This document shows, one piece after another, positions 3,426 to 60,342 of a stretch of DNA of 64,000 nt; the stretch's first letter is position 1; each line of letters opens with the position of its first letter. The notes below the pieces were generated by a model. The model saw nothing but the letters and a program-made list of their open reading frames with translations. It was not told the origin of the DNA and did not search any database. The position numbers and the translations under genes were made by a program. Source of the stretch: a virus (lineage: Duplodnaviria > Heunggongvirae > Uroviricota > Caudoviricetes). Location of the stretch: IMG/VR virus record IMGVR_UViG_3300045049_000270; one strand, written 5' to 3'.

Positions 3426-4190
3426 GTGAGCGTTTATCTTCGGCACATACCAATCAAAGACATCAGCGTGCCAGTACTGAATGTCAGTGCTGGTAATAAA
3501 AATGTCCTAAGTGTTCCAACGCAGCTTGGTTGTCCGGTCGGTTGTTCATTTTGCGTATCAACTACCAATAAATTTGTTCGTAATCTCACTGCTGATGAGA
3601 TTGTTGATTTGGTGGTCAAAAATGCACCAAATCACCCATTTGTTCTTTCATTTACTGGCGAGGGTGATGTTCTCTTTAACACCGAGAATGTGAGCAATGC
3701 TTTATCAACCCTCTACACTCTTAGCATACCGATCACATCAGTTCGTTATTCGATAAGTGGGGTTGCATCCCGCCGGATACGTTTTCTTGATACTACCACT
3801 TTCCCTGCTGAGTTACAGGTGTCGATGCACACTTTTAATCAGTCGATTCGTGATAAGATGATTCCAAAATCTGATCCGATTTATCGGATTTTGGAATCCG
3901 TATCCATGCATTACGCATCGTTCTCCAAAATTAGAATCAACTATGTATTGCGTGAAGGATTGAATGATACTCCTGGCGATATTACCCACCTTAAGCATTG
4001 GGGACATAATGATTGGGACTTCATTCTTAACCCATTCCTCACGCCTAACGGTGCTATCGTACATCCACGTGTAGATGACATAGCTATGGAAATGTTCTTT
4101 TCGGGTAGAAATGTCTATGTGTTTCGCAATGTAGGCGAAGACATCTGCGATAACGAGATTTACAATAACCTTACGTATCGCCAGCATTGA
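3426..4190 (+). CDS. radical SAM enzyme
   Basis: CxxxCxxC cluster motif in LGCPVGCSFCVST near the N-terminus; GTG start. Confidence 0.6.
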   Translation: MSVYLRHIPIKDISVPVLNVSAGNKNVLSVPTQLGCPVGCSFCVSTTNKFVRNLTADEIVDLVVKNAPNHPFVLSFTGEGDVLFNTENVSNALSTLYTLSIPITSVRYSISGVASRRIRFLDTTTFPAELQVSMHTFNQSIRDKMIPKSDPIYRILESVSMHYASFSKIRINYVLREGLNDTPGDITHLKHWGHNDWDFILNPFLTPNGAIVHPRVDDIAMEMFFSGRNVYVFRNVGEDICDNEIYNNLTYRQH

Positions 4191-4833: not shown

Positions 4834-5202
4834 ATGGATAACAAATTCTGGGGTTATCACCTCATGCTGGACTGTGCAGGTTGTAAAGTTGACGGTGGCA
4901 TTGGTAGCAAGGAAGCAATCTACAACTTCATCAAGGAACTAGTCGTCGCTATCGATATGGAAGCGCACGGCGAGCCTATCATCGAATATCTGTTGCCAGG
5001 CGATCCAAAGCAGGGCTATAGCCTGATGCAGCTCATCACGACCTCCAACATTTGCGGGCATTTTATGGACCTCGATGGCACTGCTTACTTCGACGTATTT
5101 TCCTGTCGAGAATATGATCAGCAAACAGTGATCGACATGGTTAACAAGTATTTTGCTCCACAACGTACTCGAATTAATTTCGTTACACGTCACGCAGGCT
5201 AA
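4834..5202 (+). CDS. S-adenosylmethionine decarboxylase-like protein (SpeH/class 1 AdoMetDC fold)
   Basis: matches small pyruvoyl AdoMetDC: GYHLMLDCAGC ... QGYSLMQLITTSNICGHF ... AYFDVFSC; the canonical ESH cleavage site reads TSN here. Confidence 0.5.
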   Translation: MDNKFWGYHLMLDCAGCKVDGGIGSKEAIYNFIKELVVAIDMEAHGEPIIEYLLPGDPKQGYSLMQLITTSNICGHFMDLDGTAYFDVFSCREYDQQTVIDMVNKYFAPQRTRINFVTRHAG

Positions 5203-5249: not shown

Positions 5250-5666
5250 ATGGGTGCTCACCGTACACCTCCAAAGCCACCATATTTCGATACAGTGCCA
5301 GAAGGCACTTGTCGTTGGTGCAATCAAGAAGTTGGTCTAACGCCTAAGGGCAAGCAAAGCAAATCACGCTGGCATCCTGCCTGTCTAGCTGAATACAAAC
5401 TGTTGTTCTGGCCCGCCACTACCCGTCGCGCAGTGTACAAACGCGATCGAGCAAAGTGTAATCAATGTGGTGCCAAGTGCGACCGTTACCAGAATCCTTG
5501 GCACATGGATCACATCAAACCACTCGTGGAAGCTCAAGGAAACTTGGACTACTGGCGACTACCAAACTTGCAGACGCTATGCGAACCATGTCATACTGCC
5601 AAAACTTCCCATGAAGCAACTGAACGCGCAGCCAAACGTAGAGCAGCAAAAGACAAAAACGCTTGA
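5250..5666 (+). CDS. HNH endonuclease
   Basis: CNQCG...WHMDHIKP...NLQTLCEPCHTAKT (HNH/zinc-finger nuclease motifs). Confidence 0.75.
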   Translation: MGAHRTPPKPPYFDTVPEGTCRWCNQEVGLTPKGKQSKSRWHPACLAEYKLLFWPATTRRAVYKRDRAKCNQCGAKCDRYQNPWHMDHIKPLVEAQGNLDYWRLPNLQTLCEPCHTAKTSHEATERAAKRRAAKDKNA

Positions 5667-8017: not shown

Positions 8018-8515
8018 ATGGCAAAGGTTGAAATTCTGCGTGTTGGTCATGCACTGATCGCTGGCAAGCGTGGTGATAACGGTGGTGCTCCGTCGAAGGA
8101 CAGCGTGTTCGGTGTGGCAAAGGTACAAGGCAACCTCGTGACGTTCGGTGGCCGCCGTGGTGGCATGCTGCGTTTCAAGACATACAAGAAAGATGCACTC
8201 GAAAGCGTACTCGCATTTTACGCGAAGAAGCTGACGGGCAAGGACAAGGGTTTTGCGTATAAGGATCTCGATGCTGCGGCTCAGGTCGAAACGCTCGGTG
8301 CCGATTTTGAAGCAAACCTCGGCAAGATGTTCTACAAGGCGATGGGCAACGGCAAGCTGAACACGCGTTCGACGAAGCCGCAAGCTCCGAAGTACAAGGC
8401 ACCGAACCCGAAGAAGGTGTTCGCGTTCCCGACGCAAGCTTCGGTGGCGGCTGCCGCTGCGGCAGCCGAAAAGGCAGCCAAGAAGGCGGCAAAGGCCGAT
8501 AAGGCTGCTGCGTAA
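8018..8515 (+). CDS. WGR-domain-like small basic protein, paralog 1, with Ala/Lys-rich tail
   Basis: SKDSVFGVAKV...GRRGGMLRFKT...KKLTGK resembles the WGR core (FWEIE..G..V.V.WGRIG..G); H1-like tail AEKAAKKAAKADKAAA. Confidence 0.6.
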   Translation: MAKVEILRVGHALIAGKRGDNGGAPSKDSVFGVAKVQGNLVTFGGRRGGMLRFKTYKKDALESVLAFYAKKLTGKDKGFAYKDLDAAAQVETLGADFEANLGKMFYKAMGNGKLNTRSTKPQAPKYKAPNPKKVFAFPTQASVAAAAAAAEKAAKKAAKADKAAA

Positions 8516-9490: not shown

Positions 9491-9611
9491 GCGCAAAAGT
9501 GTTTGACGCCATAGTGTACTTGCAATACAATATGGCTTAGTAGTTGCAGTAAACCTTAAGGTGGCGTTGATGGGACTCGAAAACTATCTCATCACTTTTA
9601 AGGAGCAGTTC

Positions 9612-10181
9612 ATGAAGAAAATCATGTCGTTGTTTCAACGTAACTACGAAGGGGATCGTAAGGTTCGTGACGAAGTTACTCCGGGTGCTGAATGGGTTGT
9701 TCAGGGTGAAGGTTACGCTACTCGTAAATGGGATGGCGTGGCTGTGTTGGTAAAGGATGGTCAAGTCTTTAAGCGTTACGACGCTAAGACTGGGAGAACA
9801 CCTCCCATTGACTTCATTCCTGCCCAACCTAACCCTGATCCGAAAAGCGGGCACTGGCCTGGTTGGGTTCCCGCTGAAGGCCCGGAATCGAAGTACATTC
9901 GAGAAGCTGTCGAATGGGCGCAGAAGAACAAGTTTGCCGGTGGAATCCCTGATGGCACATATGAAGCGTGTGGTCCCAAAATTGGGACACGTCACGGTGC
10001 TAATCCTGAAGGTTTGACCGAACACATTCTTGTTCCTCACGGTAAGGATATCTTAGAAGATTGCCCGCGCACGTTTGATGGCATCAAAGAATGGTTGCGC
10101 GACAAGCCTATCGAAGGCATTGTTTGGCATCACGAAGATGGTCGCCTTGTGAAAATCAAGAAAGCTGACTTTCCGTACTAA
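9612..10181 (+). CDS. ligase-family nucleotidyltransferase (small ATP-dependent RNA/DNA ligase-like)
   Basis: motif I RKWDG (KxDG); motif IV PIEGIVWHH (EGhV); motif V RLVKIKK; AAGGAG RBS before MKKIMSLF. Confidence 0.6.
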   Translation: MKKIMSLFQRNYEGDRKVRDEVTPGAEWVVQGEGYATRKWDGVAVLVKDGQVFKRYDAKTGRTPPIDFIPAQPNPDPKSGHWPGWVPAEGPESKYIREAVEWAQKNKFAGGIPDGTYEACGPKIGTRHGANPEGLTEHILVPHGKDILEDCPRTFDGIKEWLRDKPIEGIVWHHEDGRLVKIKKADFPY

Positions 10182-10186
10182 GCTGT

Positions 10187-10220
10187 AAAAGATGGCCCCA
10201 TATGGGGCCATCTGCCATTT
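10187..10220 (+). terminator. probable terminator hairpin
   Basis: AGATGGCCCCA-TAT-GGGGCCATCT then GCCATTT. Confidence 0.5.
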
Positions 10221-10311
10221 GGCGGCTTTACATTTGGTATGATTTGTCATACAATGAATAAATGAATGGCTTATGGTAGCTTGATCATCAAAAACGAATA
10301 AAGGAGCATCA

Positions 10312-11547
10312 ATGCGGATCGCGATTACCGGTAACATTGGCTGTGGAAAATCCACATTCACGAAACTATTGGTGAAACATCTTACACCAAATTACACTCA
10401 AGCAAGCATCGATGAGATGGTTCACGAGCTTTATAAGAACACCGAATTTGCTAAGGAGCTGAAGGAACAATTCAGAACGGATGATCGCAAGCAAATATCG
10501 GATATCGTATTCAACGACCCAGAGCAACGTAAATGGCTTGAAGATTTGGTGAAAACGCACATGCGGTTGCGAATGATAAAAATCGACAGTCAGAATCACA
10601 TCGTAGTTGAATTTCCGCTGTTGTTTGAAATGTGCAATAATGACAAATACGATTTCATCATCACGTGTATGTGCGACGATGAGACGCAAGAAAAACGTGT
10701 GACTGCACGTGATGGCTTCACTGCCGAAAAAATCGCAAAGATTCGTGGTGCGCAACTCAGTACTATTGTGAAGTCGGCAATGTCGGATGAAACAATTGAC
10801 ACTAATGTTTCGCTTGAAGAGCTTGAAACTGAAGCTAAACGCATTGCTGGTAACATTGCTCGAAAAGATCTACGTTTATTCTTCCAAAGCGCCTTTTACA
10901 AAAAAGAAAAGGAAGCTGGTGAATTGTTCGACAATGCGATGAAACAATATCACGGTTTTGATCGGCACTGGCATAATGCAGATCACCCACTTGCTATGTA
11001 TCGATGGTTTATGTCGAATCTTGACAAATTCAACTATCCTGGCATTGCCGGTATTGCGATCATCTATCATGATGTGGTCTACAGTACGTATAAGACTCTG
11101 TATCCACATAATGAATCTCAAAGCGTTAAGTTCATGATTGATCAATTCAAAGCAATTATGCCAGAAGCATTGCGATTTGAAATTGAAGATGGTATCCCAT
11201 CACTCGCAGTTGCTGCTGAATACATCATGAGTACGAAAACGCATTCGGCTTCTTCGCATTTCTTGAAAGCCAATCCTAAGTTGAAAAACGATTGTGAATT
11301 GTTTCTTGATGTGGACTTGATGATGTTGGGTGGAACTCCCGAGGAGGCTGAAGCATTTGATGACGCAGTATATCAGGAGTTCAAAAATGAGTATGAAATT
11401 CGAACATTTGCTAGAGGCCGGGTTTCTGTATTGAAGACATTTTTGCGTCGACCAAAAGTTTTTCAATCATCGCACTTTGCACATCTCGAAGATAATGCAC
11501 GTGCAAACTTGGACACACTTATCAAGAAATGGGAGCGTTGGGTCTAA
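10312..11547 (+). CDS. coaE: dephospho-CoA kinase (CoaE) fused to a C-terminal HD-like domain
   Basis: N-terminal ~190 aa aligns with CoaE: MRIAITGNIGCGKST (P-loop), FNDPEQRKWLEDLV, PLLFE...; C-terminus has H..H / HD / H / D pattern (HWHNADH...IIYHD). Confidence 0.7.
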   Translation: MRIAITGNIGCGKSTFTKLLVKHLTPNYTQASIDEMVHELYKNTEFAKELKEQFRTDDRKQISDIVFNDPEQRKWLEDLVKTHMRLRMIKIDSQNHIVVEFPLLFEMCNNDKYDFIITCMCDDETQEKRVTARDGFTAEKIAKIRGAQLSTIVKSAMSDETIDTNVSLEELETEAKRIAGNIARKDLRLFFQSAFYKKEKEAGELFDNAMKQYHGFDRHWHNADHPLAMYRWFMSNLDKFNYPGIAGIAIIYHDVVYSTYKTLYPHNESQSVKFMIDQFKAIMPEALRFEIEDGIPSLAVAAEYIMSTKTHSASSHFLKANPKLKNDCELFLDVDLMMLGGTPEEAEAFDDAVYQEFKNEYEIRTFARGRVSVLKTFLRRPKVFQSSHFAHLEDNARANLDTLIKKWERWV

Positions 11548-14773: not shown

Positions 14774-15169
14774 ATGGCAAAGGTCGAAATCATCAAGCTG
14801 GGTCACGCACTGATCGAAGGCGAACGCGGCGAAAAGGGTGGCAAGCCGTCGAAGGACAGCGTCTGGGGTATCGCATACGTCGGCAACGCACTCGTCAAGT
14901 TCTACGGCCGTCGTGGTGGCAAGCTGCGCTTCAAGACGGAAAAGAAGGCCGCACTCGACGAAGCGCTGGCACTGTTCGAAGAAAAGCTGGCCGGCAAGGA
15001 CGTGAAGGGCATCAAGTACGTCGACGTGTCGAGCGCGAAGGGGATCAAGGAAACGTGTCCGTCGATCGTCGAAGATGTCAGCAAGGGCTACTACGCGGCT
15101 GTGCGTGAAGGCAAGGTAAACACGCGTTCGACGAAGGGCGCCCGCAAGGCTGCTGAAGCTGAAGCATAA
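14774..15169 (+). CDS. WGR-domain-like small basic protein, paralog 2
   Basis: MAKVEIIKLGHALIEGERGEKGGKPSKDSVWGIAYVGNALVKFYGRRGGKLRFKT...EEKLAGKDVKGIKY. Confidence 0.6.
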   Translation: MAKVEIIKLGHALIEGERGEKGGKPSKDSVWGIAYVGNALVKFYGRRGGKLRFKTEKKAALDEALALFEEKLAGKDVKGIKYVDVSSAKGIKETCPSIVEDVSKGYYAAVREGKVNTRSTKGARKAAEAEA

Positions 15170-18875: not shown

Positions 18876-19091
18876 ATGAAACGATTTCTTGCTGTGCTTT
18901 TGAAGCTGTTTGCTACTGTTGCCTTCGCACGAGGGGGTGGCGGAGGTGGAGGTCATGGTGGCGGTGGCCATGCCTCTGCTGAGGGTCATAGCATTAATGG
19001 CGTTGATATTTGTGCTTGGGTGATTGTAATTATTGCAATGATTTCCGCTGTTGTTCTCGTCATTATGTTTTTTGTGATGCTTTTTGGTTGA
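18876..19091 (+). CDS. small secreted/membrane peptide with Gly/His-rich segment
   Basis: signal-like N-terminus; GGGGGGGHGGGGH; C-terminal TM helix. Confidence 0.4.
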   Translation: MKRFLAVLLKLFATVAFARGGGGGGGHGGGGHASAEGHSINGVDICAWVIVIIAMISAVVLVIMFFVMLFG

Positions 19092-19146
19092 CTCCATATT
19101 CATTTGAAGATACAATATGAATATGGCAACTATTTGAGAGGACAGG
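19087..19146 (+). promoter_or_regulatory. family-P promoter cassette
   Basis: TTGACT-N17-TACAAT; CCATATTCATTTGAAGA / ATGAATATGG inverted repeat. Confidence 0.55.
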
Positions 19147-19821: not shown

Positions 19822-20373
19822 TTGAGTAACTTGGTCATTCTTAAAGTTGGTCATGCCTTCATCAAGGGTAAGTTTGCTAACGACAAGCCGAAAAAGGATT
19901 CTCTCTGGGGGCTGATGCGCACTGATGAGGCAGTCATCAAGTTCTTCGGGCGGCGCGGCGGATCGATTAGGTTCAAACAAGAACCGATCAGCGAGCTCGA
20001 AGCAGCGCTCAAGCTGTACCAGCAGAAGCTAGATGGCACTGATGCAAAGAAGCTGAAGCACGATGATCTCGATGCCGACAAGCAGGCTGAGCTGCTTGGG
20101 GCCAACTTTTCGCAAGAACTTTGCGAAAAGTATGAAGCAGCACTTGCTGAAGGCAAGATCGACTACCGCATTGCGAAGGTCGATGACGAAGCTGATGGCG
20201 AAGTTGCGGAGCCGAAGGCTGAGGAACCGAAAGCAGCTGGCAAAGCTAAGGGAAAACCCAAGGCCGAATCAAAGGCTCCCGAAACGCCACCGGCTCAGAC
20301 TGCGCCAACCAACACGACTCCTTTTAGCTGGCCGTACCCAACGACCACTATTCCCTCCAGCACACAAGAGTAA
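19822..20373 (+). CDS. WGR-domain-like protein, paralog 3, with Glu/Lys/Pro-rich tail
   Basis: KKDSLWGLMRTDEAVIKFFGRRGGSIRFKQ...YQQKLDG; TTG start after AGGAGA RBS; family-P promoter at 19760. Confidence 0.55.
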   Translation: MSNLVILKVGHAFIKGKFANDKPKKDSLWGLMRTDEAVIKFFGRRGGSIRFKQEPISELEAALKLYQQKLDGTDAKKLKHDDLDADKQAELLGANFSQELCEKYEAALAEGKIDYRIAKVDDEADGEVAEPKAEEPKAAGKAKGKPKAESKAPETPPAQTAPTNTTPFSWPYPTTTIPSSTQE

Positions 20374-26604: not shown

Positions 26605-26683
26605 TTGACGTGAGCATCAAATGAACGTATTATTTGATACATGGTAAGCAGTGAAGACAACGCAACAAACTTTACAGGAGATC
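26605..26683 (+). promoter_or_regulatory. family-P promoter cassette (long leader) upstream of WGR paralog 4
   Basis: TTGACG-N17-TATTAT; CATCAAATGAACG; TTGATACATGGTAAGCAG ... CAGGAG. Confidence 0.55.
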
Positions 26684-26686
26684 GAA

Positions 26687-27046
26687 ATGGCAAATGTCGA
26701 AATCATCAAGTTTGGTCACTTCTACAACGAAGGTGCTCGTGGTGAAGCAGGTGGCGCGGCAAGCAATGATAAGATCTGGGGTGTGGCAAAGATCGACGGC
26801 AAGTTGGTCAACTTCTGGGGCCGCCGCAACGGCAAGCTGAAGTTCAAGACGCGTTATCTCAGCGAGATGGGTAAGGTCATGGAAAAGTGGGCCGAAAAGA
26901 TTGGTGGCCGCACTGATGGTGGCGATGTCTATACTCCGATTCTCTCGGCAACGATGCAAATGACGCTGTGCCCGCGTCTCGTACAAGATGTCACGAAGCA
27001 CTTCTATATCGATCTTGCAAAGGGCAAGGTTAATACGAATCACTAA
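26687..27046 (+). CDS. WGR-domain-like protein, paralog 4
   Basis: MANVEIIKFGHFYNEG...SNDKIWGVAKIDGKLVNFWGRRNGKLKFKT; family-P promoter at 26605. Confidence 0.55.
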   Translation: MANVEIIKFGHFYNEGARGEAGGAASNDKIWGVAKIDGKLVNFWGRRNGKLKFKTRYLSEMGKVMEKWAEKIGGRTDGGDVYTPILSATMQMTLCPRLVQDVTKHFYIDLAKGKVNTNH

Positions 27047-31586: not shown

Positions 31587-32417
31587 ATGAAACGTACTAT
31601 TGGCTTTATTGTTGCACTCGCTATTGGTGCAATGTTGATGACGAGTGGTTGCACTCGCATTGAATCAGGCAATGTCGGCATTGTCAAACATTGGGGCGGC
31701 AAAATCGATCCTGAAGTGTTGGAACCTGGTTTCCATTTCATGATTTTCGATTCGCTGCTCGCAGAAGTTGATGCAACTCCTACACGAGTGGCAGTGAATA
31801 ATCTCACACCGAAAGATGCTGACGGCGTACCAGTTGACGATCTGGATATCGTTGTAACATATAAACTCAATGCACCATATGTATCAAAGTTCTATACTGG
31901 AACACATGAACTGGATACGTACAAAGATGGTAGTGGGCGTGAATACACTACTATTGGGCTTGAAGCTATCAAGCAATTGGCTCCTGGTGTTATGCAAACC
32001 GCAACGGAAACCGATGACCCTGTTGCTATTGCGAAGAATACGCAATTGTATGATGCGAAAGCTTCTGCTGAATTCAAACGTGTGCTTGATGCACGATATC
32101 CAAATGCGTTCGATTCAGTATCAGTGCTCACATTACATTTCAAATTGCCCGATTCTATTCAACAACAAGTGAATGCAGTAGCGGCATTTAATGCTGAAGC
32201 AGAACGCAACAAGGCTGAATTGGCGTTGATTGCACAACGCAAGGAACTTGCGAGCAAGAAAGCAACCGTAGACGCTGAGGCGCTTCGTGCCGCTGCTGAT
32301 GCTGCCCACCTCACACCCGAAGAGGTGATTGCGTGGCGCAACGCCAATGCCGCTCAGACCCAAGCTGAAAATATCGGTGGTGTTGCAAAAGTGATCGATG
32401 TAAGTACCAAGAAATAA
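31587..32417 (+). CDS. SPFH/band-7 domain lipoprotein
   Basis: lipobox LMTSGC; SPFH-like SGNVGIVKHWGG...LEPGFHF...DLDIVVTYKLN; Ala-rich coiled-coil C-terminus. Confidence 0.6.
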   Translation: MKRTIGFIVALAIGAMLMTSGCTRIESGNVGIVKHWGGKIDPEVLEPGFHFMIFDSLLAEVDATPTRVAVNNLTPKDADGVPVDDLDIVVTYKLNAPYVSKFYTGTHELDTYKDGSGREYTTIGLEAIKQLAPGVMQTATETDDPVAIAKNTQLYDAKASAEFKRVLDARYPNAFDSVSVLTLHFKLPDSIQQQVNAVAAFNAEAERNKAELALIAQRKELASKKATVDAEALRAAADAAHLTPEEVIAWRNANAAQTQAENIGGVAKVIDVSTKK

Positions 32418-34176: not shown

Positions 34177-34410
34177 ATGCGAGCACGTGAACATCGTGGT
34201 GGATTGGCCGAATCACTGGCTACGGTCTTCAATTTCGAAACGAAGGAAGACTTGTTGACGGAAATTAACGAACGCATGGGGACACATTTTTGCCATGACG
34301 ACATTGCATTCCTTCATCAAGGAAAAGATGAACGCATTGGTTGGGATACTTACTTGGTGAGTGTGCGTGGCTATGGTGTGTTCGGATATACAGATGGGAT
34401 ACCAAAATAA
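34177..34410 (+). CDS. hypothetical protein (77 aa)
   Basis: AGAGGG RBS then ATG; stop overlaps the tpt1 start (ATAATG). Confidence 0.4.
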   Translation: MRAREHRGGLAESLATVFNFETKEDLLTEINERMGTHFCHDDIAFLHQGKDERIGWDTYLVSVRGYGVFGYTDGIPK

Positions 34411-34958
34411 TGAATGAAGACTTCAATAAAAAGTACAAAAAGCATAGTATTTGGTTGTCGTACTTGCTGCGACATGGTGCGAAAGAACAAAAAGTCAAAA
34501 TTGACAAACAAGCATTCATCCTAGTAGACGATGTGATAGCGGCGGGCAAGAAAGCAGGTTATGAATTTGATCTTGAAATCCTGAAAGGAATTGTTGCTAA
34601 CGATCAGAAGGGCCGTTATTCATTCAATGAAGACTTCACCAAAATTCGGGCAAACCAAGGACATTCCATTAATGTTGATCCTGGGTTGCAAAAAGCAGTG
34701 CCGCCAGTGATCTTGTATCACGGCACTTCAAGCGAAGCTTGGGAGATCATCAAGAAGAAAGGTCTCAATAAGATGACACGCACTCACGTTCATCTCACTG
34801 CTGACATTGAACTGGCTCGGAAACGGTTTCGAAAAACTGTAGTAATCGAAGTTGACTCTAAAGCTATGCTGGCTGATAAAGTTGATTTCTACAAGTCAGC
34901 AAATGATGTGTGGCTGGTTGATGCCGTAGATGCAAAGTATCTGAAGCTTGTGGAATGA
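34410..34958 (+). CDS. kptA: RNA 2'-phosphotransferase (Tpt1/KptA)
   Basis: near-collinear with E. coli KptA: WLSYLLRHG, GRYSF...IRANQGHS, VILYHGTSSEAWEIIKKKGL, RTHVHLTAD, NDVWLVD. Confidence 0.8.
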   Translation: MNEDFNKKYKKHSIWLSYLLRHGAKEQKVKIDKQAFILVDDVIAAGKKAGYEFDLEILKGIVANDQKGRYSFNEDFTKIRANQGHSINVDPGLQKAVPPVILYHGTSSEAWEIIKKKGLNKMTRTHVHLTADIELARKRFRKTVVIEVDSKAMLADKVDFYKSANDVWLVDAVDAKYLKLVE

Positions 34959-43307: not shown

Positions 43308-43382
43308 GCGTCTGTAGCTCAGTGGAAGAGCAGGGCCCTTACAAGGCCAAGGTCGGGAGTTCAACCCTCTCCAGACGCACCA
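43308..43382 (+). tRNA. tRNA-Val (anticodon UAC), CCA encoded
   Basis: hand-folded cloverleaf: acceptor GCGTCTG/CAGACGC, D-arm GCTC-AGTGGAA-GAGC, anticodon loop CTTACAA, T-arm GGGAG-TTCAACC-CTCTC, then A-CCA. Confidence 0.7.
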
Positions 43383-43423: not shown

Positions 43424-43500
43424 CTCCGGTTAGTATAGTCTGGTTAGTATACGTGGTTTGGGACCATGGGACGCAAGTTCGAATCTTGCACTGGAGACCA
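43424..43500 (+). tRNA. tRNA-like gene, possibly tRNA-Pro (UGG); D-arm non-canonical
   Basis: acceptor CTCCGGT/ACTGGAG, anticodon arm CGTGG-TTTGGGA-CCATG, T-arm GCAAG-TTCGAAT-CTTGC, A-CCA end; D-region holds a GGTTAGTATA direct repeat I could not fold cleanly. Confidence 0.4.
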
Positions 43501-52059: not shown

Positions 52060-52731
52060 ATGGCAACCCACCAGAAGCTCGTAACACCTGAAGTCCTTCA
52101 TTACGAAAAGTTGAAGATGGCTCTTCGTTATCAGTTGATGGGACGAGCTTCTCGTGATTCTGTTTGGTACGTTGCAATCAAGGCACTAGACCTTGGCCTC
52201 ATGTATCATACGGGTTTTCGCAAAGACGGCAAAACACCGGAATTCCAGCACCAGATCGAAATTGCGCTGTATCTCCTGACCATGGAGAAACTGTTGATCG
52301 ATGCGCCACGCACGATCGCTGATGCTCTGCTTCATGACCTAGGTGAAGATTACGGTCATCAAATCAGCTTCGAAGAAATTGGCGAGCAAACTGACAAAAT
52401 CATCGAAATTGATTGTCGTCTACTTGCGAAAGAATACCGTGGTGAAAGGAAAACCACAGATGAATACTTTGAACCACTGGCCGGTAATTTCCGTGTGTCA
52501 GTTGTGAAAGGCAGCGATCGCGTGCATAATATGCGAACGATGGCTGGTGTGTTCAAGCTGGAAAAGCAAATCAGTTACTGCGATGAAACGGAAGAACATT
52601 TCTTCCCGTTCTTGAAAGCTGCACGGCGCAATTTCCCTGAACAAGAACCAGTTTACGAAAACATTAAATTCAACCTTACAACTCAGCTACGAATTTATCG
52701 TAGCGTAAACGCTCAAGGCATTGCAGCATGA
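52060..52731 (+). CDS. small alarmone hydrolase: (p)ppGpp hydrolase HD domain (SpoT/Mesh1-like)
   Basis: HQIEIALYLL, ALLHDLGEDYG, RVSVVKGSDRVHNMRTM parallel the RelA/SpoT hydrolase motifs (LLHDvvED; ADRLHNMRTL); GAGGAGCCAAC then ATG. Confidence 0.7.
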   Translation: MATHQKLVTPEVLHYEKLKMALRYQLMGRASRDSVWYVAIKALDLGLMYHTGFRKDGKTPEFQHQIEIALYLLTMEKLLIDAPRTIADALLHDLGEDYGHQISFEEIGEQTDKIIEIDCRLLAKEYRGERKTTDEYFEPLAGNFRVSVVKGSDRVHNMRTMAGVFKLEKQISYCDETEEHFFPFLKAARRNFPEQEPVYENIKFNLTTQLRIYRSVNAQGIAA

Positions 52732-59373: not shown

Positions 59374-59481
59374 ACGTTGTTAAAGCAATCCCAGATGAAA
59401 TAAATATTTCAAAACAAAATTGGCACGGGCATTGTATAATAGATGTCTGTGCCATTTGCCAATTATTTTCTGGAGATTGTC

Positions 59482-60342
59482 GTGCAACATATCGAAGTTA
59501 CTTTAGCAGCAATCGGCGAAGGCGCCCAGATCATGGAGTGCAAATCAGGGCCTCTTGCACTCCGAGAACATATTTCAAAGCTTCCTATTCCCCTTCAATG
59601 GGGATCTTTTATAACCAGTGATGCTTCTTTGCTGGAACACGGTAAATTGGCGGTGGTCGAAGAATATATGCCAAGACTTGCCAATGCCGTACATTCTACA
59701 CTCTCAAAAGAACGTTTCCCTCTCGTAATTGGCGGTGATCATTCCTGTGCAATTGGCACTTGGAGTGCAATAGCTAATTTCTATCGAACAATGGGTGATA
59801 TTGGTCTAATCTGGATTGATGCTCATCTTGACAGTCATACTCCACAAACATCTGAAAGCGGAGCTCCTCATGGTATGCCTCTAGCTTGCCTTCTAGGATA
59901 TGGCAGCCGCAATCTCACCACCATACACGATGTTGTTCGAAAGCTACGTCCTCAAAATGTAGTGGTGATCGGAGCACGGAGCAGTGAAAAGGGTGAAGAA
60001 GATCTACTAGAAAGCCTTGGCGTTCGCGTTATGCGAATTGAAGAAGTGCATGACCGTGGTTTCGATGTTTGCTTAGACGAAGCTATTGAAATAGTTTCAA
60101 AAGAAACTGTTGGTTATGGCATCACATTTGACATTGATAGTCTGGATCCTATTGATGCACCAGGAGTTGGTTCACCAGAAGATGGTGGGTTGTGGCTATC
60201 TGATGTAGTAAGGACATTTGAAAGTATGAACAAACGCAAGTTGATTGGCTTCGAATTGGTCGAATATAATCCAGAGCGTGATTCTGGCGACCTTCGCACT
60301 GCCAAAGCTTGTGTTGCTATTCTTGATGCAATTTTGCCATAA
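59482..60342 (+). CDS. arginase/agmatinase-family ureohydrolase
   Basis: binuclear-Mn motifs GGDHS, DAHLDSHT, DIDSLDP; GGAG RBS then GTG. Confidence 0.65.
   Translation: MQHIEVTLAAIGEGAQIMECKSGPLALREHISKLPIPLQWGSFITSDASLLEHGKLAVVEEYMPRLANAVHSTLSKERFPLVIGGDHSCAIGTWSAIANFYRTMGDIGLIWIDAHLDSHTPQTSESGAPHGMPLACLLGYGSRNLTTIHDVVRKLRPQNVVVIGARSSEKGEEDLLESLGVRVMRIEEVHDRGFDVCLDEAIEIVSKETVGYGITFDIDSLDPIDAPGVGSPEDGGLWLSDVVRTFESMNKRKLIGFELVEYNPERDSGDLRTAKACVAILDAILP

Follow-up and report, generated by a model that had tools for sequence, protein, structure and literature searches.

A single-domain RNA ligase of the RLIG1 family in a jumbo phage, with a probable role in RNA repair

The IMG/VR record IMGVR_UViG_3300045049_000270, a Caudoviricetes virus, supplied the 64,000 nucleotides (nt) of DNA analysed here (the window), which are 64 kb out of a genome of roughly 520 kb. 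The window belongs to a new jumbo phage: near-identical DNA was found in none of the deposited phages, and the protein considered below also occurs, with identical sequence, on a 523,572-bp metagenomic contig. That protein is encoded by a gene of the known RLIG1 family rather than by a new kind of enzyme, and is very probably an ATP-dependent 5'-to-3' RNA ligase in the most reduced form of this family. A first-pass annotation, made from the sequence alone, had placed a protein of 190 residues at positions 9612-10181; the gene stands, but its product has 189 residues. The gene and the elements that identify it are as follows.

9612..10181, + strand: coding sequence of the RLIG1-family RNA ligase, nucleotidyltransferase domain only; ATG at 9612, stop codon TAA at 10179-10181, 189 aa
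9601-9605, + strand: Shine-Dalgarno element AGGAG, 6 nt 5' of the ATG at 9612, read from the sequence
9726..9737, + strand: motif I, K39-W-D41-G42, aligned with TAKTDG of Yasminevirus RLIG1 (9c6l)
9774..9776, + strand: motif Ia, R55, aligned with Yasminevirus R89
9963..9965, + strand: motif III, E118, aligned with Yasminevirus E174 (YEACGPK / VELMGPK)
10038..10040, + strand: motif IIIa, H143, aligned with Yasminevirus H195; His in 93% of homologs, Phe in the rest
10113..10118, + strand: motif IV, E168-G169, assigned by Pfam match, spacing and superposition
10152..10160, + strand: motif V, K181-I-K183, with K181 assigned by Pfam match, spacing and superposition

Two alternative starts exist in this open reading frame (ORF), a GTG at 9561 (mechanical call) and an ATG at 9570 (JGI call, 203 aa). 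The ATG at 9612 is the likely start, because the N-termini of all 16 homologs inspected begin with MKKIxSLFQRNY, in agreement with this position.

Three strings had been picked out earlier as ligase motifs I, IV and V, and all three are present with ligase spacing: RKWDG at residues 38-42, EGIVWHH at 168-174 and LVKIKK at 179-184. The 13 residues that separate E168 from K181 equal the distance between E250 and K263 in human RLIG1, and in T4 Rnl1 the corresponding E227 and K240 are likewise 13 residues apart. Judged on sequence, these matches go far beyond chance, because the protein scores well above the gathering cut-off of the Pfam model PF17720 ("RNA ligase 1", RLIG1; 41.4 bits against 25, E = 1.1e-10), matches PHROG 14301 ("RNA ligase") over residues 1-189 (E = 1.2e-86), has 1513 homologs in a search of 5.8 billion clusters, and shows a ratio of nonsynonymous to synonymous substitution (dN/dS) of 0.11 against a relative of 88% identity. 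PF17720 is also precomputed on most of 120 listed homologs. The Pfam and PHROG matches thus bear out the earlier suggestion of an RNA ligase, which at the level of the family is already in the literature.

Conservation was assessed on 144 distinct homologs of 29-88% identity, taken from phage and bacterial loci. K39, G42, R55, E118, E168 and G169 are invariant in this set, and D41 and K181 (99% each), H143 and K183 (93% each) are nearly so. K39, which aligns with the Met of the K73M mutant of Yasminevirus RLIG1 (9c6m; TAMTDG) and so with the position of human K57 and Yasminevirus K73, is predicted to be the lysine that accepts AMP; D41 is a predicted metal ligand, and R55 is predicted to contact the ribose 3'-OH of ATP. 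The residues matching R89, E174, H195, E240 and K253 of the Yasminevirus enzyme, which are sensitive to mutagenesis, are all present and 93-100% conserved.

The only solved structures that match the ligase in sequence are 9c6l and 9c6m, wild-type and K73M Yasminevirus RLIG1 respectively. Structural comparison gave by far the highest score with 9c6l (15.9; 2.4 Å over 170 residues, 29% identity), followed by the Naegleria RNA ligase (8.2), T4 Rnl1 (6.9), T4 Rnl2 (6.8), and archaeal RNA ligases, Trl1 and DNA ligases (5-6.7), which places the protein inside the ligase/capping-enzyme fold, as had been proposed. Its ligase fold is minimal and ATP-grasp-like and lacks accessory domains: the nucleotidyltransferase domain stands alone, and the C-terminus lies 6 residues past motif V. 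In this the protein differs from NgrRnl of Naegleria gruberi (Rnl5 type, 5cot), which carries an N-terminal OB domain and, according to the title of its PDB entry, seals nicks in duplex RNA. Membership of other phage RNA ligase families was considered and rejected. The score with TIGR02308, the T4 Rnl1 family, is 10.4 bits against a cut-off of 242.25, PF09511 gives no match and the C-terminal tRNA-binding domain is missing; nor does the protein match the model of the Rnl2-containing RNA_ligase family, PF09414.

Compared with the characterised members of its own family (RLIG1/C12orf29; PF17720, formerly DUF5565), the window ligase is 21-29% identical to the Yasminevirus protein and much smaller, at 189 residues against 277 in Yasminevirus and about 325 in human RLIG1, both of which have an N-terminal extension and an internal insert that it lacks. 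Its clade, made up of prokaryote and phage proteins, has conserved stretches of its own, GHWPGW and GTRHGxNPE. Full-length PHROG 14301 orthologs of the same size are encoded by RP12 (gp162, YP_009598952; 77% identity), Mycobacterium phage Paola (gp78; 52%) and Cellulophaga phage phi10:1 (39%), and RefSeq already labels all three "RNA ligase".

The closest deposited relatives are from the Ralstonia jumbo phages RP12 and RP31 (77%), followed by the Ralstonia FLC phages and Burkholderia phage FLC9 (67-69%), a mycobacteriophage group (about 52%), and Cellulophaga and Nocardia phages (37-40%). IMG/VR holds 223 confirmed ligase loci, many of them on contigs of 170-520 kb. Cellular homologs include Burkholderiales sequences from Roseateles (77%) and Massilia (about 70%), and others from Planctomycetota, Verrucomicrobiota, Myxococcota, Cyanobacteria, Chloroflexota, Actinomycetes, Bacteroidota, Saccharibacteria and a few archaeal metagenome-assembled genomes. 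We clustered all ORFs flanking the ligase, up to 6 kb away on either side for 80 IMG/VR loci and up to 4 kb for 80 bacterial ones. Apart from the ligase, these 160 loci shared only antisense artefacts and clade-specific synteny; no conserved operon partner emerged, and the gene stands alone.

What such an enzyme does is known in part from its relatives. Human C12orf29/RLIG1 was reported in 2023 to autoadenylate K57 and to ligate RNA (PMC9931718), and Hu et al. (2024) showed that it seals 5'-phosphate to 3'-OH/2'-OH ends of single-stranded RNA, including tRNA halves broken in the anticodon loop, but rejects nicked DNA, 2'-phosphate ends and 2',3'-cyclic-phosphate/5'-OH ends (PMC11494293). "Several" bacterial and viral homologs, among them a "C. 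phage" protein, behave likewise; the activity profile, ATP-specific autoadenylation included, is known for human RLIG1 and in part for Yasminevirus and for unnamed bacterial and phage homologs, and the same authors predicted an anti-defence role in tRNA repair (PMC11494293). From a gene whose family, fold and conserved catalytic residues are established, we infer ligase activity by analogy with the assays on the human, Yasminevirus and unnamed bacterial and phage enzymes. In the first step K39 would attack the alpha-phosphate of ATP to give a ligase-(lysyl-N)-AMP; the AMP would then be moved onto a 5'-phosphate RNA end to form AppRNA; and a 3'-OH end with a free 2'-OH would finally attack AppRNA, producing a phosphodiester and releasing AMP. 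R55, E118, H143, E168 and K181/K183 would grip the nucleotide and metal. As there is neither an OB domain nor a tRNA-binding appendage, specificity would have to reside in the nucleotidyltransferase core. The likely substrates would be broken single-stranded RNA loops, chiefly anticodon loops of tRNAs that host defence nucleases have cleaved, and such breaks would need prior conversion to 5'-phosphate and 2',3'-OH ends by healing enzymes not visible in the window.

We therefore favour, as the likely account, a minimal RLIG1-family enzyme of one domain, an ATP-dependent 5'-to-3' RNA ligase that reseals broken RNA, above all tRNA, against host defence. The anti-defence repair role on its own, drawn by analogy and in agreement with the published prediction, we would put only slightly on the favourable side of even.

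Several points weigh against this account. We found no assay of the window ligase or its closest clade, and Hu et al. leave the "C. phage" and "R. bacterium" homologs unidentified and do not specify which were active (PMC11494293). Human RLIG1 can also halt at the AppRNA stage (PMC13598233). Because neither the viral nor the bacterial loci gave a conserved neighbour, the repair pathway rests on analogy. A tRNA gene lies within 10 kb of the ligase in 12 of 60 viral loci, directly adjoining it in L009, L046 and L067, which is consistent with a report that bacterial DUF5565 genes have RNA-related domains nearby and, in more than 20% of neighbourhoods, tRNA genes (PMC10364804), but our count is without a background control and 4 of the 12 loci look closely related. 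Healing enzymes are missing as well. The 126 ORFs of the window were compared with Pfam (E ≤ 1e-4) and PHROG (25 of 43 PHROG families listed), and no polynucleotide kinase, HAD or Metallophos (calcineurin-type) phosphatase, or 2H/cyclic phosphodiesterase was found, for PHROG among the matches listed; with the same scope, neither RtcB nor a second RNA ligase is present. T4, which uses Rnl1 and Pnkp to repair tRNA cut by the anticodon nuclease PrrC, encodes Pnkp as well as its ligase, whereas none was detected in the window, where the ligase is moreover not of the Rnl1 family.

An alternative in which the protein serves mainly as an RNA 5'-adenylyltransferase making AppN-capped RNA, or in routine phage or host RNA processing rather than defence repair, draws on some of the same facts. 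In vitro, human RLIG1 turns 5'-p-RNA into Ap2N-RNA, and about 20% of these caps in cells are attributable to it (PMC13598233); the window ligase stands alone with no healing partner nearby, and it is common in bacterial chromosomes, where an anti-phage logic does not apply. However, any such ligase must pass through AppRNA, so that forming it in vitro does not show the reaction to end there; tRNA halves are joined efficiently by homologs, and the motif IV and V residues needed for the later steps are invariant. We consider this alternative unlikely, though less so than those that follow.

Two further alternatives supply the missing healing enzymes from elsewhere in the window. The features that bear on them are as follows.

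34410..34958, + strand: Tpt1/KptA RNA 2'-phosphotransferase homolog, 182 aa, ATG at 34410, PF01885 (6.9e-43)
9503..9531, + strand: promoter-like TTGACG-17-TACAAT 5' of the ligase, weak evidence; consensus scan, 10/12 positions matched
10190..10213, + strand: 10-bp G+C-rich hairpin, terminator-like but without a clean U tract, 9 nt past the ligase stop codon
10227-10255, + strand: second promoter-like site, 3' of the ligase hairpin; consensus scan
10312-11547, starting 131 nt 3' of the ligase: P-loop kinase and phosphohydrolase (HD) fusion, 411 aa, phrog_19425 (1e-16)

The Tpt1 gene, which the first-pass annotation had also noticed, is real. Besides PF01885 it matches PHROG 5470 (9.5e-51) and NCBIfam NF002014 (178 bits, under the equivalog cut-off of 239), and its best phage homologs are just about 40% identical. 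Its putative Arg-His-Arg-Arg catalytic set can be read in LLRHG, KGRYSF and MTRTHVHL. Its neighbours are small unrelated ORFs without Pfam matches, except for a Band_7 protein at 31587-32417.

The first alternative holds that the ligase, the kinase-HD fusion (a CoaE homolog), the CoaD-like gene that follows it and the distant Tpt1 gene form a heal-and-seal pathway with Trl1/Tpt1-like chemistry but unrelated parts. As in the Trl1 and Tpt1 systems of fungi and plants, the genome indeed combines a 5'-to-3' RNA ligase with a Tpt1/KptA homolog. But Trl1 requires a 2'-phosphate at the 3' end and leaves a 2'-phosphate junction for Tpt1, ends that human RLIG1 will not join, and, unlike in that pathway, no 2H cyclic phosphodiesterase or polynucleotide kinase was found in the window. 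The two genes are 24 kb apart, and Tpt1 lies near the ligase in 0 of 160 related loci (within 10 kb on either side in viral and 8 kb in bacterial loci). Nor do the genes occur together among phages: 25 phage records carry the ligase (Mycobacterium, Ralstonia, Cellulophaga and a few others), at least 22 of them without a Tpt1 match, and 98 carry a Tpt1 match (Erwinia, Dickeya, Klebsiella, Serratia, Clostridioides, Bacillus and a few others), with the ortholog genera Ralstonia, Mycobacterium and Cellulophaga absent from the latter. Position, phyletic pattern and published substrate specificity all speak against a coupling of ligase and Tpt1, the link on which the first-pass annotation had built its heal-and-seal capacity, and we hold the pathway built on it to be improbable. 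KptA in some jumbo phages has been described by Iyer et al. as one option for end-cleaning, alongside 2H phosphoesterases (PMC7824862, PMC9503650). End-cleaning of this type is possible in the window phage with no tie to this ligase; a specific Tpt1-based repair pathway is not supported, and the earlier interpretation as a whole is supported only in part.

The first-pass annotation had also proposed a search for a companion kinase or phosphatase. No Pnkp-type gene was detected in the window, and the sole kinase-phosphoesterase among the ORFs scanned is the fusion adjoining the ligase, whose kinase half exceeds the cut-off of the NCBIfam dephospho-CoA kinase equivalog (86.5 against 65.55). The gene after it, which overlaps it, exceeds the cut-off for CoaD (133 against 103). 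The only significant sequence relatives of the two in the PDB are DPCK and PPAT structures, besides marginal P-loop (ABC transporter) and NadR matches. The plain reading is that they would carry out the last two steps of coenzyme A (CoA) synthesis, and since these steps are consecutive the pairing can be explained without RNA. As an analogue of Pnkp the fusion was mostly rejected, since it scores as a CoaE homolog beyond the equivalog cut-off and has a CoaD homolog as its partner.

It is in this light that the second alternative must be seen, namely that the RLIG1-type ligase seals within an undescribed phage RNA-repair cassette whose healing enzymes are drawn from CoA-biosynthesis folds. The fusion is rare (23 clusters) and lies next to a CoaD-like gene in all 10 contexts seen, and RNA ligases of three unrelated families occur within about 5 kb of the pair in 5 of these 10: RLIG1 in the window and L059, PF09414 in L087 and L089, and RtcB with PTH2 in L174. 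The remaining contexts have Metallophos, NADAR, NUDIX, AlkB-like and TyrRS genes. The recurrence of RNA ligases is why a Pnkp-like reading is kept at a low probability, but it does not outweigh the CoaE and CoaD assignments. Outside the window the fusion adjoins RLIG1 in one close relative only; the pair is missing from the other 79 viral and 80 bacterial ligase loci. The genomic neighbourhoods in RP12, Paola and phi10:1 differ from that in the window, and none has the pair adjoining the ligase. In the window, a hairpin and a promoter-like site lie between ligase and pair, RtcB requires no kinase or phosphatase healing, and human RLIG1 rejects 2'-phosphate ends (PMC11494293). We thus regard such a cassette as very unlikely, and equally so the roles it would assign, in which the CoaE-like kinase would phosphorylate 5'-OH RNA ends, the fused phosphodiesterase-like HD domain would open 2',3'-cyclic phosphates and Tpt1 would strip the resulting 2'-phosphate. 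A minimal DNA ligase sealing nicks in phage DNA is the least probable alternative, as every one of the protein's nearest relatives in structure and sequence is an RNA ligase, nicked DNA is not sealed by human RLIG1 (PMC11494293), and the protein has neither an OB nor a latch domain with which to encircle a duplex.

Resealing of RNA by a minimal RLIG1-family ligase thus remains our preferred account. The window adds a jumbo-phage example to a family in which a human member was first recognised as late as 2023. Members of the prokaryote and phage clade are reduced to a core of about 190 residues in which all catalytic residues are conserved; they are abundant (about 1500 clusters) and their genes stand alone, and the window protein is among the smallest plausible polynucleotide ligases. 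It would be a convenient system both for learning how an RNA ligase without accessory domains chooses its substrate and for testing the published proposal that tRNAs broken by host defences are mended by viral RLIG1. For the window itself the outcome is mainly corrective: the gene should be annotated as an RLIG1-family RNA ligase, and a partnership with Tpt1 should not be assumed.

The signals flanking the ligase suggest how it may be transcribed. The 3' hairpin has an RNA fold centroid of -20.8 kcal/mol, with z = -3.35 against shuffles for the surrounding 59-nt stretch, and as it is followed by the promoter-like site at 10227-10255 the ligase may form a separate transcription unit. However, a generic sigma-70 consensus scan of the window gave no more promoter-like sites than expected from shuffles, so the two TACAAT sites flanking the ligase should be taken as no more than suggestive. 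The pattern TT[GT]AC[AGT]-N16-18-TA[CT]AAT has three matches in the 64 kb, at 9503-9531 (81 nt from the ligase ATG at 9612), 10227-10255 and 19088-19116, all on the + strand, intergenic and 30-155 nt 5' of mechanically called + strand ORF starts; these may represent a class of phage promoter.

Some elements that carry the kinase-HD/CoaD-like pair have further genes of note. One encodes a 421-aa protein of AAA_33 (P-loop kinase) and HD domains (L091, 14108-15373), and in another an RtcB-PTH2 cluster lies between two R2K ATP-grasp genes (L174, 3259-5154); both regions look like RNA-repair or translation-rescue islands. Radical SAM genes occur near the pair in L087 and L089, but show no homology at E 1e-4 to the radical SAM gene of the window (3426-4190, + strand). 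The latter encodes a short protein of 254 aa that resembles the core of RlmN/Cfr RNA methyltransferases, well under the family cut-offs, and is followed on the + strand by an S-adenosylmethionine decarboxylase-like gene (4834-5202) and an HNH endonuclease gene (5250-5666). Together with an arginase-family gene at 59443-60342 (E = 2.1e-56), the decarboxylase-like gene suggests phage-encoded polyamine metabolism.

Elsewhere in the window, two tRNA genes, tRNA-Val(TAC) at 43308-43382 and tRNA-Pro(TGG) at 43424-43500, lie 42 nt apart on the + strand, 33 kb from the ligase. Four paralogous + strand ORFs of about 130-180 aa and 40-54% mutual identity (8018-8515, 14774-15169, 19822-20373 and 26651-27046) are also represented in the related jumbo-phage contigs L008 and L059; the copy at 8018-8515, the one scanned individually, has an Ala/Lys-rich tail and no Pfam or PHROG match. 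Finally, the 223-aa product of the + strand ORF at 52060-52731 contains an HD_4 domain (2.8e-8) with the fold of RelA/SpoT-type small alarmone hydrolases, and may hydrolyse (p)ppGpp or pppApp for the phage.
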